Shown here: one piece after another, positions 42,994 through 48,344 of the stretch
Layout of the letters: each line of letters starts with the position of its first letter
Numbering within the stretch: position 1 is the stretch's first letter
DNA from: a virus
Reading direction: 5' to 3' (one strand)
Virus record (IMG/VR): IMGVR_UViG_3300045988_180522
DNA length: 64,000 nt
Translations under genes and position numbers: made by a program
The notes under the pieces: generated by a model
What the model was told of the DNA's origin: nothing
Databases searched by the model: none
What the model saw: the letters and a program-made list of their open reading frames with translations, nothing else

Positions 42994-43377
42994 CTATATA
43001 ATTTCAGGCGCTTTCATCCAATGAGTGACCCCATAGACTACCTCTCCGGAGCAAGAAGTATACCATAATTTTTCCTCTTTTACATAGTAAGCTATATTTA
43101 CTCCTCTTCCATATTCATTTGTCACAATACAATTAAAGTCATCTTCTGGTAATCTTTCTGTAACCCTGACCCATGAAGATTCTGTATGTTCATCTGCCTG
43201 TTCGAGTATCAGTCTTTTGGGTTCTTTATCCGTCCATTTGACATATTTAAACTCCTTCATATAACAACTAAGTGGTGATTTCTCCTGTACATCATCACTA
43301 TCCCAGTTATGTTCCTTTTTTACGGGCTTATTCTTGTAAACCCATAAACAGTCATCTTCATCTCTGGCTATCCACAT
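42994..43377 (-). CDS. DUF551-like phage protein
   Basis: 127 aa; the C-terminal region WVRVTERLPEDD...VTHWMKAPE matches the DUF551 pattern (...RLP...V.HWMPLPEPP). Confidence 0.5.
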   Translation of the reverse strand: MWIARDEDDCLWVYKNKPVKKEHNWDSDDVQEKSPLSCYMKEFKYVKWTDKEPKRLILEQADEHTESSWVRVTERLPEDDFNCIVTNEYGRGVNIAYYVKEEKLWYTSCSGEVVYGVTHWMKAPEII

Positions 43378-43423: not shown

Positions 43424-43663
43424 TCAATCCTTCTTTAATTCTATAGATTCATCATTCCAAGTTAAATCTTTACCTGTAAGTTTCTTGATAGAACCCTTAG
43501 GTAAAATAATCCCAGTATCTTCGTTATCATACTCACTACTGTTCTCATCACTCCAATATTCAGGTTCCCATAATTTACAACGTGATGTATCAGGGTCTTT
43601 TCTAAAGGGTCTAAAAGCAAATATACTTTCACTGCCATTTTTATTTACTGCTACAAATGCCAT
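43424..43663 (-). CDS. Small acidic hypothetical protein
   Basis: 79 aa with an ATG start. Confidence 0.35.
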   Translation of the reverse strand: MAFVAVNKNGSESIFAFRPFRKDPDTSRCKLWEPEYWSDENSSEYDNEDTGIILPKGSIKKLTGKDLTWNDESIELKKD

Positions 43664-43666
43664 AAC

Positions 43667-43867
43667 TTATAATTTATAATAATTAGTATCACATCTTACA
43701 ACTTCACCATTCTCATAGATTTGGTTTACTTCTACTCTCACTTTACCATGAATATAATCTTCTATAGTAGGTGTAATTATAGTATTGATTAACATTCCTA
43801 AGAAAATAGATAACAATAGAATTGCAAGTGCTGATGATATTCTAATATCTCTATCTTCCTGTGTCAT
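43667..43867 (-). CDS. Small single-pass membrane protein
   Basis: 66 aa; hydrophobic helix ISSALAILLLSIFLGMLINTII. Confidence 0.35.
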   Translation of the reverse strand: MTQEDRDIRISSALAILLLSIFLGMLINTIITPTIEDYIHGKVRVEVNQIYENGEVVRCDTNYYKL

Positions 43868-43877
43868 AACTTTTTAC

Positions 43878-44015
43878 TTAAGTATTCAAACTAAAATTAT
43901 ACCAAAACATACTTCCACAATCACAACATCTACAGTTAACTCCAGATGTAAAATACCCTACTTCATAATGGTAGGATCCACAATAAGGACATCTACATAA
44001 ATTTACCGTATACAT
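43878..44015 (-). CDS. 45-aa seven-cysteine peptide (zinc-ribbon-like CPxCG...CxCCxCG) immediately downstream of the radical SAM gene
   Basis: Hand translation gives MYTVNLCRCPYCGSYHYEVGYFTSGVNCRCCDCGSMFWYNFSLNT*. It is absent from the supplied track because it is under 60 aa. Confidence 0.3.
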   Translation of the reverse strand: MYTVNLCRCPYCGSYHYEVGYFTSGVNCRCCDCGSMFWYNFSLNT

Positions 44016-44039
44016 TTCTATCTATTTTTTTTAACTTTA

Positions 44040-44981
44040 TTAATATTGTAAGTCAAGAATATTATTCTCATTCCAAGAGAGAGAAATATCCCCGCTTACA
44101 AGACATTTAAATGTATTTATCTTCCTGTTCCTGATATCATTTTCGCAGATCTGGTCTGAAACTTTACTTCCCAGATTCCAGTTAATAATAATAGGACACT
44201 TAGCTGGAATTAAAAGATACCTGACAAATCCCAGCGTGTCCTTATTATCTATAATAGTATACGAATCTTTATATGCCTCTATCAGACTTGTGAACAGAGA
44301 TATATACTGCTTATCGGAGAGGATTAAATGGGTTCCCTTATTTTTGGTATTAACAGAGAAACTATCCTTTGGTATAATATTACTTATCCTGATCTCATCC
44401 ACAAAACTTATTTTACGTATGTGGTCAGTCAGTGAATTTATAGTATCCAGATTCCCTCTCCATATATTCGTATTAACTCTTACTTTTATAGCCGGATTAT
44501 AATATTTAATGGTATTGTAAATTCTTCTTAAGTCCTTCAGTGTGATAAAGTCCTCATTATGAAAGGATATATTTATACCCTGTATCCCTATATCCTCTCT
44601 TACAAGCTCCTTTATGAATGCTTCGTTATCTTTTAGTCTTATCCCATTAGTAGTCAGTCTGACCATATTCAATCCGGTATCAAGTCTTAGTGTAGATATG
44701 AACCCTAATATATTCGGATGCAGCAAAGGCTCTCCCCCAAGTAAAATAGCTTCTTTTATATTATACTTTTCAACCAGGTATCTGATATTACCTAAGGCTT
44801 TACCACAAGGCAAATCAAGGGATCTGTCTGTCTCTGAATTTATACAATAGGCACAATTACACTGACATTTATTTGTGACTACAATGCTTAGGTAAGCATT
44901 ATCGGATACTAATCCTATATCAGTAGGATAGTACCTGTTTTGCTTAAATATTTCAAGTGAATCTATTTGGATTATACTCAT
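44040..44981 (-). CDS. Radical SAM enzyme of unknown specificity
   Basis: 313 aa. It has a CxxxCxxC motif (NKCQCNCAYCINSE), a GGE SAM-binding motif (LLGGEPLLHP) and three additional C-terminal Cys (CPIII...C...C). Confidence 0.75.
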   Translation of the reverse strand: MSIIQIDSLEIFKQNRYYPTDIGLVSDNAYLSIVVTNKCQCNCAYCINSETDRSLDLPCGKALGNIRYLVEKYNIKEAILLGGEPLLHPNILGFISTLRLDTGLNMVRLTTNGIRLKDNEAFIKELVREDIGIQGINISFHNEDFITLKDLRRIYNTIKYYNPAIKVRVNTNIWRGNLDTINSLTDHIRKISFVDEIRISNIIPKDSFSVNTKNKGTHLILSDKQYISLFTSLIEAYKDSYTIIDNKDTLGFVRYLLIPAKCPIIINWNLGSKVSDQICENDIRNRKINTFKCLVSGDISLSWNENNILDLQY

Positions 44982-47585: not shown

Positions 47586-48344
47586 TTATAAAGAAATTTC
47601 TCTCCATATACATCCGAGTTTTACTCCGGACATACTATTAATTTCTTTACCTGTGCGTTTCAATTCCTCTTGGAACTTACACCATTTCTGGTTAGTCTCT
47701 GAGCTCCACCTCTTATAGGAATAACAATTTAATGGGTATCTTGACAGTATATCAGACAAAATCTTAGCTCCTTTATATTTTTTGATCCTTAGATAATAGA
47801 AAATTCTTCCATCCTTTTTTCTTTCAACCTCGATCTCAGGGAATACTCCTATCCTGTTAAAAAATGGGATAAAAACCTGTTCCTGATCCTCCCTGCTAAA
47901 TCTATGAGTACTGATATTATAGTACATCTCATTTTTATGAAGGGATCCATTATCATATATCCATAGAGCTATTCCTAAGTCATCTATTTTATCCATAGCA
48001 TCTTTAAGACTAAGAGACCTTATAGAAGGCAGTATACGGCAGGACCTGGACCTCATACAATATATACTGGTCCTTGAATATCCGTTTTCTTCTACAAAAG
48101 TCTTACTCTTAAACAAATCTCCCAGTAATTGTGATTTGAAGTCTATATACTCCTCATACTTACAATTAGTACAGTAATAGGTGCTATTACTATTTGATGT
48201 ATATATACCTCCATCACCGATCTTTGCTGTCAAAAACACCTGTAATTGTTCTCTACTTAGAGAGTAAAGTTGCTGATTTTCCATTATTGTAGATTTATAG
48301 TATCGTACAAATATAGATAATATTATCAAGCATTCAACAGACAT
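47586..48344 (-). CDS. LAGLIDADG homing endonuclease (double-motif)
   Basis: Motifs FLTAKIGDGGI and GIALWIYDNGSLH. Confidence 0.6.
   Translation of the reverse strand: MSVECLIILSIFVRYYKSTIMENQQLYSLSREQLQVFLTAKIGDGGIYTSNSNSTYYCTNCKYEEYIDFKSQLLGDLFKSKTFVEENGYSRTSIYCMRSRSCRILPSIRSLSLKDAMDKIDDLGIALWIYDNGSLHKNEMYYNISTHRFSREDQEQVFIPFFNRIGVFPEIEVERKKDGRIFYYLRIKKYKGAKILSDILSRYPLNCYSYKRWSSETNQKWCKFQEELKRTGKEINSMSGVKLGCIWREISL

Follow-up and report, generated by a model that had tools for sequence, protein, structure and literature searches.

A phage radical SAM enzyme and the cysteine-rich mini-protein beside it probably belong to two independent cassettes

A radical SAM (rSAM) gene followed by an ORF for a 45-aa peptide with seven cysteines and by a gene for a small membrane protein raises the question of whether the three form a RiPP system, in which the enzyme would place thioether or other crosslinks in the peptide, as in sactipeptides, ranthipeptides or SCIFF-like products, and export or immunity would fall to the membrane protein. 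The first-pass annotation of this DNA had regarded the pairing of the rSAM with the Cys-rich peptide as the signature of such a system. The window, that is, the whole 64-kb stretch of DNA that was analysed, comes from a crAss-like phage whose structural genes were 97% identical to those of crAss-like Dulem virus 41. The three ORFs were confirmed on the minus strand at the positions previously assigned to them (Table 1), and none of them occurs by chance: the rSAM had a Pfam match and homologues, the peptide ORF was under purifying selection (pN/pS ~0.25) and is annotated as a protein in public assemblies, and the membrane ORF recurred on many contigs with 97% identity. The description of the latter as a single-pass membrane protein was also borne out, with one strongly hydrophobic segment (mean Kyte-Doolittle 2.54). 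A promoter and terminator scan gave no signal above background.

Table 1. Positions of the features discussed in the text, in window coordinates
Feature	Position	Strand	Basis
rSAM, 313 aa, uncharacterised phage/MGE family	44040..44981	-	ORF confirmed
CxxxCxxC (CQCNCAYC, residues 39-46; C39, C43, C46), SAM-binding [4Fe-4S] cluster motif	44844..44867	-	alignment
GGEP SAM-binding motif, residues 82-85	44727..44738	-	invariant in family alignment
beta-5 R168-x-N170 motif	44472..44480	-	profile alignment to MoaA, viperin
C279...C293 pair, C-terminal domain	44103..44147	-	family alignment
C-terminal G-x-(I/L)S-x-SWN signature, residues 297-304, superfamily marker	44070..44093	-	invariant in alignment
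Cys-rich mini-protein, 45 aa, probably 4-Cys zinc ribbon	43878..44015	-	ORF confirmed
Single-pass membrane protein, 66 aa	43667..43867	-	hydrophobic segment, residues 13-31
Block 96.6% identical to rSAM-less relatives	43627..44005	.	blastn of window vs L137
Two conserved genes upstream of variable cassette site, 127 aa and 142 aa	45015..45854	-	

The enzyme matched the Pfam family Radical_SAM (48.5 bits, E=1.5e-12), Fer4_12 being the only other Pfam domain found in it. Residue conservation was counted over 121 family members and 13 distant relatives, and ~90 positions of the family alignment were invariant. The CxxxCxxC motif was kept in 120-121 of the 121 members and, without exception, in the 13 distant relatives, and GGEP was aligned with the GGEP of both MoaA and viperin; C39, C43 and C46 make up the canonical motif of a single [4Fe-4S] cluster and GGEP is the SAM motif. 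These two motifs had been recognised from the outset, together with extra C-terminal cysteines. The latter were present (C262, C279 and C293, among eight cysteines in total), but only C279 (120/121) and C293 (116/121) were conserved in the family, C262 appearing in 27/121; with C39, C43 and C46 they were the only conserved cysteines, and no third one was found outside the core. In the distant relatives the C279 segment was deleted and C293 was replaced by Leu, Met or Ile. Since only two cysteines outside the core were conserved, and these were lost in the distant relatives, an auxiliary Fe-S cluster seems unlikely. All 13 distant full-length relatives retained S300 and W303 of the C-terminal signature, and R168 was present in 121/121 members and in 12/13 distant relatives. 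The AF2 model (pLDDT 86.7) showed a predicted partial TIM barrel of the MoaA/viperin branch, and its nearest folds were MoaA, viperin and Tes, with a resemblance at the level of the core only.

The features of a RiPP maturase were searched for in the same protein. No Pfam match to a SPASM/twitch domain was obtained at E up to 1, and no match to an RRE/PqqD-like element was found in Pfam or NCBIfam, the ~30 residues N-terminal to the core leaving no room for an RRE. As for the peptide, the count of seven cysteines was correct, but only four of them were conserved among its relatives, C9, C12, C28 and (C33), along with H16; the CPYC of residues 9-12 and C28...C33 were maintained while C7, C30 and C31 varied. 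The family is small (15 clusters) and confined to the phage lineage of the window. There was no Pfam match and a weak one to PHROG 31134 (E=3.5e-4), and the AF2 model consisted of two beta-hairpins with low confidence (pLDDT 59). The conserved pattern suggests that the peptide is probably a 4-Cys zinc ribbon-like protein and a putative metal binder, in line with the plain zinc ribbon that had been offered as an alternative to a RiPP precursor.

The co-occurrence of the genes was evaluated by sampling rSAM neighbourhoods in 31 lineages. A peptide homologue adjoined a full-length rSAM only in the lineage of the window (rSAM at least 96% identical) and was absent beside the rSAM in the other 30 of the 31 lineages, its closest relatives being located in rSAM-less genomes; the membrane gene was likewise absent from all rSAM loci outside the lineage of the window. 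Six contigs of 21-166 kb (L135-L140) had an intact seven-Cys peptide (89-91%) with the membrane gene (97%) directly downstream and no trace of the rSAM, and at 22 loci the peptide was next to a mere 3' scrap of the rSAM gene. When the window was compared with one of these six contigs (L137) by blastn, they were 96.6% identical from 44005 to 43627. This block begins ~10 nt inside the peptide ORF, pointing to a recombination junction between rSAM and peptide at ~44005, a few codons into the peptide ORF, whose start reads MTSINL in rSAM-less genomes and MYTVNL in rSAM-bearing ones. Compared with the nearest rSAM-bearing genomes, pS was 0.42-0.55 for the peptide and 0.12-0.15 for the rSAM. In its inheritance the membrane protein follows the peptide rather than the rSAM. 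Several rSAM-less genomes carried degenerate peptide copies, which might reflect decay once the partner had been lost; this reading is disfavoured by intact copies without rSAM (L135-L140, as well as L040) and by a locus (L003) in which the rSAM was 97% identical but the peptide had lost its second Cys knuckle.

Non-homologous Cys-rich precursors at the other rSAM loci were also considered and rejected, because small Cys-rich ORFs flanking the rSAM were not enriched (10/107 vs a background of 41/601, p=0.23). Nor were such ORFs conserved even in sister loci, since a Gly/Cys-rich 58-aa ORF found at L023 was missing from L030 and L024. The lack of SPASM/twitch and RRE, the loss of both non-core cysteines in distant relatives, the four conserved cysteines of the peptide, its absence from 30 lineages, the intact peptide and membrane genes in rSAM-less genomes and the junction separating enzyme from peptide together make a RiPP system highly improbable. 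The phage RiPP system proposed for this locus thus almost certainly does not exist, and a false lead is avoided.

The arrangement of the site itself suggested another explanation. The two genes upstream of it (127 aa and 142 aa) were kept in relatives whichever cassette filled the site (the rSAM, a DUF7666 repeat protein or other), and in close relatives the place of the rSAM was occupied by other cassettes. We consider, with a probability of about 0.8 for the explanation as a whole, that the locus is a hypervariable accessory island with two adjacent but unrelated cassettes, a stand-alone rSAM and an independent peptide/membrane cassette. The peptide and the membrane protein would move as a pair whether or not the rSAM is present, and would here have become linked to it by recombination in the conserved opening codons of the peptide gene. 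The locus would then be a clean case of cassette exchange in crAss-like phages, in which displaced genes have left recognisable remnants and the joint for recombination may have been the short, conserved start of a gene.

We obtained 398 word-indexed homologues of the rSAM, and its family comprises several hundred proteins of ~310 aa that are 45-72% identical between unrelated phages and common in gut and rumen viromes. It was not found in GenBank phages, PHROGs or BFVD, nor in the literature on phage rSAM, crAss-like, anti-defence and viperin-like topics. The family is highly conserved, uncharacterised and metagenome-only, an orphan within the radical SAM superfamily. One bacterial member of 2,149 aa (P0174) contained no informative extra domain. 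Neighbour clustering gave no conserved partner gene; the sole recurrent neighbour was the 142-aa ORF family, homologues of which were found in the vicinity of the rSAM in 8 context groups, on either side and at varying distance.

The rSAM was then compared with named enzyme families, and it reached no curated NCBIfam cut-off. The highest scores were those of the MoaA profiles (TIGR02666, 59.6 with a cut-off of 284; NF001199, 46 with a cut-off of 231), whose matches covered residues 29-190 only, and of TIGR04317 (W_rSAM_matur; 53.1 bits, cut-off 380), followed by NF038283 (viperin_w_prok; 41.6 bits, cut-off 180, residues 35-267), QueE (25.3, cut-off 260) and NrdG2 (24.7, cut-off 131). The PADLOC pVip models gave 44 and 35 bits, the former over residues 33-284. 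Membership in the QueE, NrdG, MoaA, viperin or tungsten cofactor maturase families was rejected, all scores being far under the cut-offs, so that the enzyme continues to be a phage-borne rSAM of unassigned function, as it had been described. An earlier suggestion that it might modify nucleosides or nucleotides found support: MoaA and viperin, which act on nucleotides, are its nearest, though distant, relatives, but it belongs to neither the QueE nor the viperin family. In hhalign, MoaA reached 98.5% probability and viperin 95%, with only the core aligned (residues 31-189 for MoaA).

In MoaA, the residues R17, K69 and R71 bind GTP; their positions were confirmed on the 1TV7 sequence, and in hhalign their counterparts in the rSAM were S32, E77 and I79, all of which are invariant. 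According to the structures of viperin with CTP, K120, N122 and S124 are the nucleotide-binding residues of its beta-2 strand, and these were mapped to E77, I79 and L81. The sole substrate-side motif common to the three enzymes was R168/N170, which corresponds to K163/N165 in MoaA and K220/N222 in viperin. Because the residues with which MoaA and viperin bind the triphosphate are not kept, the rSAM is unlikely to bind a nucleoside triphosphate in their manner.

These comparisons bear on two proposals. One is that the rSAM is an auxiliary metabolic gene for cofactor biosynthesis, either a MoaA-type GTP 3',8-cyclase or a maturase of tungsten-cofactor oxidoreductases. MoaA and W_rSAM_matur were indeed the best HMM matches, MoaA topped the Foldseek matches, the spacing of C279/C293 is that of MoaA C264/C278, and IMG and NCBI use both names for the family. 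However, the scores and the extent of the alignment fell far short, the cysteine motif of MoaA is incomplete in the family and wholly gone in its distant relatives, the GTP ligands are replaced, and neither moaC nor any other Moco gene was present in the scanned neighbourhoods. This proposal is hardly tenable, and the public-database names for the family are a mis-naming.

The other proposal is a phage analogue of viperin, which would convert an NTP into a 3'-deoxy-3',4'-didehydro chain terminator directed against the polymerases of the host or of rival phages and would spare the phage's own, unusual RNA polymerases. The crAss-like and jumbo phages encode their own RNA polymerases, and both are among the carriers of the rSAM. 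In addition, the family consists of one gene with one cluster and ~310 aa, as in pVips, the pVip and viperin_w_prok models were aligned over the residues given above, and the beta-5 K/R-x-N motif is common to both. On the other hand, the viperin score was less than the cut-off and MoaA scored equally or higher, the nucleotide-binding C-terminal half was left unaligned by hhalign, and none of the three beta-2 residues is retained, which makes a viperin-like activity improbable.

A third proposal arises from genes linked to the rSAM. A second rSAM-like gene was found close to it in 5/31 lineages, in varied arrangements, and in one fusion protein. In the latter (P0123) a member of the rSAM family was fused to DUF1848 (38.3 bits, over the cut-off), and in L066 a DUF1848 homologue abutted the rSAM; a DUF5131/PA0069-like protein adjoined it upstream in L009-11 and downstream in L056/57, and other second rSAM-like genes were close by in L027 and L023. 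The rSAM may therefore work as half of a pair in some phages. The linked genes and the fusion would agree with an enzyme that modifies or repairs DNA or RNA, for instance by a restriction-evading base or sugar change, helped in some phages by a DUF1848, DUF5131 or SplB-type partner. Yet most lineages have no rSAM-like partner, including the window, in which no other ORF of 120 aa or more has a CxxxCxxC motif; homology between the partner types is not clear, no function of DUF1848 was found in the literature, and no nucleic-acid-binding domain was detectable in the rSAM. We regard a role on nucleic acids as unlikely.

Other neighbours were restricted to few lineages. In the jumbo-phage loci L023 and L030, a PRPS-like and NAMPT-like pair resembling NARP1 (bioRxiv 10.1101/2024.02.11.579819; PMC12774641) was directly downstream of the rSAM; a link of the rSAM to an NAD cassette was rejected, because this involved one jumbo-phage lineage only. 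Distant relatives of the rSAM were found in early-gene arrays with Gad2, an RNA ligase and a pentapeptide-repeat protein, and bacterial copies adjoined KilA-N/ANT or T5orf172 genes. The anti-defence neighbours could be coincidental co-residents of accessory islands.

Within the two-cassette explanation, the rSAM would be self-sufficient and bind a single cluster, cleaving SAM to a 5'-deoxyadenosyl radical that takes a hydrogen from the substrate. The substrate would be supplied by every host cell or every infection and, judging from the fold neighbours and the charge pattern, would most likely be small and anionic, nucleotide- or sugar-phosphate-like, with the invariant R108, R168, N170, R198, K205 and K292, plus E77, D179 and E280, as putative contacts. 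The neighbourhoods suggest that its product may help the phage early in infection, in counter-defence, host takeover or competition between phages. The gene stands alone in early or accessory islands where cassettes are readily swapped, in some cases next to an anti-defence or a second rSAM-like gene; since it is solitary and mobile and has such neighbours, it is reasonable to consider the family a candidate for new radical chemistry in the conflict between phage and host. More specifically, and only tentatively, the family could represent the first radical-SAM tool of phages for offence or counter-defence, converting a ubiquitous nucleotide-type metabolite (an NTP, an NAD/ADPR-derived compound or an immune signal) into a new product. 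This product would act as a block on host immunity, on host transcription or on rival phages. A role of this kind would account for the movement of the gene, on its own, among crAss-like, jumbo and other gut or rumen phages and for its place beside NARP1, Gad2 and RNA-ligase genes.

Among known systems, the SPASM/twitch RiPP maturases SkfB, SuiB, CteB and PapB share with the rSAM the Radical_SAM core, the CxxxCxxC and the GGE motif, but the rSAM has no SPASM/twitch domain, auxiliary-cluster cysteines, RRE or co-conserved precursor peptide. The peptide is similar to phage zinc-ribbon mini-proteins such as PHROG 31134 (function unknown) in having two putative CxxC-type knuckles ~15 residues apart, and differs from them in its restriction to one lineage and in its extra, variable C7, C30 and C31.

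MoaA (PDB 1TV7) has a CX2CX13C auxiliary-cluster motif, whereas the rSAM lacks the first cysteine (position 276 is D, E or K), and the C279/C293 pair, equal in its 14-residue spacing to C264/C278, is missing in the distant relatives. The C-terminal halves are not alignable in sequence, and the rSAM is phage-borne, solitary and outside any Moco gene context. Viperin and the pVips (PDB 5VSL, 9DGW) were aligned to it over the core alone, with 27% identity, and their C-terminal domain is unlike that of the rSAM, which bears the G-x-LS-x-SWN signature; moreover, pVips are located in bacterial defence islands whereas this family is phage-encoded. Ophion is a three-gene defence system (rSAM, PHP and PRTase) of Gammaproteobacteria, and its OpnA is an rSAM related to but distinct from the viperins that takes part in phage-bacterium conflict with a proposed nucleotide chemistry (bioRxiv 10.1101/2025.09.30.679545). 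The likeness to OpnA is one of description only, and the rSAM family presented here is found on the phage side of such conflict, as a solitary gene in gut or rumen settings of Bacteroidales or Firmicutes.

The first-pass annotation had described a radical SAM (rSAM) gene followed by an ORF for a seven-Cys peptide and by a gene for a small membrane protein; this layout was correct, all three ORFs being present on the minus strand. Giant ORFs typical of crAss-like phages and a structural block 97% identical to Dulem virus 41 show the window to be such a phage. No match to the rSAM region was found among 50,697 GenBank phage records. The rSAM protein was already present in NCBI nr (DAE22393.1, CrAss-like virus sp. 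ctDAq1; UniRef100_A0A8S5QU63).

The same small-gene block carried, about 2.6 kb upstream of rSAM, an ORF of 252 aa that matched the LAGLIDADG_2 homing-endonuclease domain at 26.6 bits. After the membrane gene came a 79-aa ORF; rSAM-less relatives have a second, tandem copy of it as a paralogue (about 36% identical), and distant homologues lay upstream of rSAM at two other loci (L045 and L057). A DUF551-containing 127-aa ORF was located downstream of rSAM; at L001, one of the loci collected for comparison, its C-terminal domain was joined to a different N-terminal segment, and the peptide was directly followed there by this DUF551-type ORF, the membrane gene not lying between them.

Features of the rSAM locus in the window and of the loci compared with it
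Feature	Locus	Coordinates	Strand	Remarks
rSAM ORF, 313 aa	window	44040..44981	minus	CQCNCAYC and GGEP
Peptide ORF, 45 aa	window	43878..44015	minus	seven Cys; 24 nt downstream of rSAM ORF
Membrane ORF, 66 aa	window	43667..43867	minus	after peptide ORF; one strongly hydrophobic segment
79-aa ORF	window	43424-43663	minus	
DUF551-containing ORF	window	42994-43377	minus	
LAGLIDADG_2 ORF	window	47586-48344	minus	
DUF551-type ORF, 139 aa	L001	7147-7566		
Tandem paralogue of 79-aa ORF	L136	4205-4647		
3' remnant of rSAM	L031-L041, L116-L129			codons about 272-313; close crAss-like relatives
PRPS-like and NAMPT-type pair	L023	5927-8327		contigs of 345-411 kb (with L030)
PRPS-like and NAMPT-type pair	L030	5966-8320		
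Isochorismatase gene	L030	4185-4730		
58-aa Gly/Cys-rich ORF	L023	4807-4983		
Distant superfamily locus	L130	4401-5366		early-gene array
Distant superfamily locus	L134	4132-4977 and 8163-8819		early-gene array
Second rSAM-like protein	P0123			
Second rSAM-like protein	L066	1271-1933		
Second rSAM-like protein	L009	5014-5847		
Second rSAM-like protein	L056/L057			
Second rSAM-like protein	L027	3991-4986		
Second rSAM-like protein	L023	3502-4323		

A QueE-like or viperin-like identity, proposed earlier for rSAM, was not upheld. Pfam matches were limited to two generic domains, Radical_SAM and Fer4_12, and HMM classification against NCBIfam reached no curated cut-off, every match being far below it: MoaA (59.6 bits, cut-off 284), tungsten-cofactor maturase (53.1, cut-off 380), viperin (41.6, cut-off 180), QueE (25.3, cut-off 260) and NrdG (24.7, cut-off 131). 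All five identities were rejected on these scores. PADLOC returned weak matches to prokaryotic viperin (44 and 35 bits), and PHROGs held no family for the protein. The public names, 'tungsten cofactor oxidoreductase radical SAM maturase' in NCBI nr and 'MoaA' in IMG, rest on sub-threshold similarity and are probably wrong.

A word-indexed search returned 398 homologues, mostly of about 310 aa and 58-72% identical, and an exhaustive profile search gave 32 representatives at <1e-30 plus a halo of distant full-length relatives. About 90 positions were invariant in the family alignment (35 sequences). The branch of the radical SAM superfamily to which rSAM belongs is an orphan one, metagenome-only and strongly conserved. 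Full-length superfamily domains were also embedded in two giant bacterial proteins, P0174 (2,149 aa, GCA_041674705.1), where no further Pfam domain was recognisable, and P0176 (7,560 aa).

The annotation had read the locus as a RiPP signature, in which rSAM would modify the neighbouring Cys-rich peptide; neither the enzyme nor its distribution supported this. The conserved Cys among 121 family members were C39, C43, C46, C279 (120/121) and C293 (116/121), C262 being kept in just 27. The 13 full-length distant relatives lacked the C279 segment and had Leu, Met or Ile in place of C293; R168, N170, K292, G251, S300 and W303 were retained. The family thus lacks a conserved set of three Cys that could bind an auxiliary cluster, the only conserved non-core Cys being C279 and C293, which the distant relatives have lost. 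About 30 residues precede the rSAM core, therefore leaving no room for an RRE.

Full-length family members were collected from IMG/VR, GTDB genomes, metagenomes and exact look-ups, giving 73 loci that formed 31 lineages at 90% identity. A peptide homologue adjoined rSAM only in the window's own lineage, and the membrane protein only in the window itself. Small Cys-rich ORFs were not enriched beside rSAM (10/107, versus 41/601 in the background; p=0.23). Look-up of the membrane protein led to six contigs of 21-166 kb in which its gene (97%) comes immediately after an intact peptide gene with all seven Cys (89-91% identical); none of the six retained any part of rSAM. Between 44005, which lies about 10 nt within the peptide ORF, and 43627 the window was 96.6% identical to these rSAM-less contigs; therefore the adjacency of rSAM and peptide in the window is a recombination product, and its joint lies in the first codons of the peptide gene, which are conserved. 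When the nearest rSAM-bearing genomes were compared with the window, synonymous divergence was 0.42-0.55 for the peptide versus 0.12-0.15 for rSAM. The peptide is not a partner of rSAM, and a RiPP maturase with its precursor was rejected, since peptide and membrane gene were intact without rSAM and the junction fell inside the peptide ORF.

At 22 loci the peptide stood beside only a 37-42-codon non-coding 3' scrap of rSAM, the gene having been swapped for DUF7666 plus a Gly/Ser-repeat protein. Other close crAss-like relatives kept only a 5' remnant, codons 1-72, fused to unrelated genes (L004-L008, L107-L108). The replacement cassettes at truncated sites comprised a 211-aa gene with zinc-ribbon genes, or DUF7666 with (G/S)SGD-repeat proteins (200-475 aa). 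With only truncated ends of rSAM left and other cassettes in place of the remainder, the site is marked as a hypervariable accessory island.

A pN/pS of about 0.25 showed the peptide ORF to be a genuine gene. Its family comprised only 15 clusters, all in the window's phage lineage, and intact as well as degenerate variants occurred both with and without rSAM. C9, C12, C28, (C33) and H16 were conserved, C30 was frequently Tyr and C31 was restricted to the window sublineage. A low-confidence model (pLDDT 59) placed the Cys motifs in the turns of two beta-hairpins, which would fit a four-Cys zinc ribbon. The fallback reading of the annotation, a zinc ribbon beside a nucleotide-type rSAM without assigned function, was supported.

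The rSAM gene was nearly always solitary; it stood either in arrays of small phage genes of early or accessory type or, in MAGs of Bacteroidales and Firmicutes, within mobile regions. A second rSAM-like gene (DUF1848, DUF5131/PA0069, 331-aa or NrdG-like) lay within about 2.5 kb in 5 of the 31 lineages, and P0123 (540 aa) was a fusion of the family rSAM with DUF1848, suggesting that some phages have a radical pathway with two enzymes; the window had no second CxxxCxxC ORF. Distant superfamily members neighboured a Gad2-family (anti-Gabija) protein, an RNA ligase and a pentapeptide-repeat protein in phage early-gene arrays. In one jumbo-phage lineage (L023, L030), an isochorismatase (nicotinamidase-like) gene lay upstream of rSAM, and directly downstream came a diverged ribose-phosphate diphosphokinase-like (PRPS-like) gene, then a NAMPT-type gene (421.9 bits, above cut-off), a pair resembling the NARP1 NAD-reconstitution counter-defence pathway. 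These neighbourhoods hint at a role in phage-host conflict and at a nucleotide-like or nucleic-acid substrate.

In L023, an ORF of 58 aa rich in Gly and Cys (MCGYSNFRTSGGCGSSGCG...; eight Cys) ended 18 nt upstream of the start of rSAM, but the sister loci L030 and L024 lacked it. Two near-identical bacterial contigs (L014 and L015) differed at one position about 2-4 kb upstream of rSAM, with Metallophos and a 261-aa gene in one versus a 243-aa gene and a 426-aa ABC_tran-type ATPase in the other, which may be a variable defence hotspot.

The AF2 model of rSAM was confident (pLDDT 86.7), its agreement with solved structures was limited to the rSAM core, and none of the viral predicted structures was close (top identity 22%). 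The sequences of MoaA (1TV7) and mouse viperin (5VSL), confirmed against the PDB, were each aligned to the family profile. The alignments spanned only rSAM residues 31-189 for MoaA (30% identity, probability 98.5%) and 35-192 for viperin (27%, 95%). The C-terminal domain, ending in G-x-LS-x-SWN, is the family's own. Judged from these alignments, rSAM belongs to the MoaA/viperin branch with a different substrate pocket: the counterparts of MoaA R17, K69 and R71 and of viperin K120, N122 and S124 were the invariant S32, E77, I79 and L81, and on the substrate side MoaA, viperin and rSAM had only the K/R-x-N motif of beta-5 in common (R168 and N170 in rSAM).
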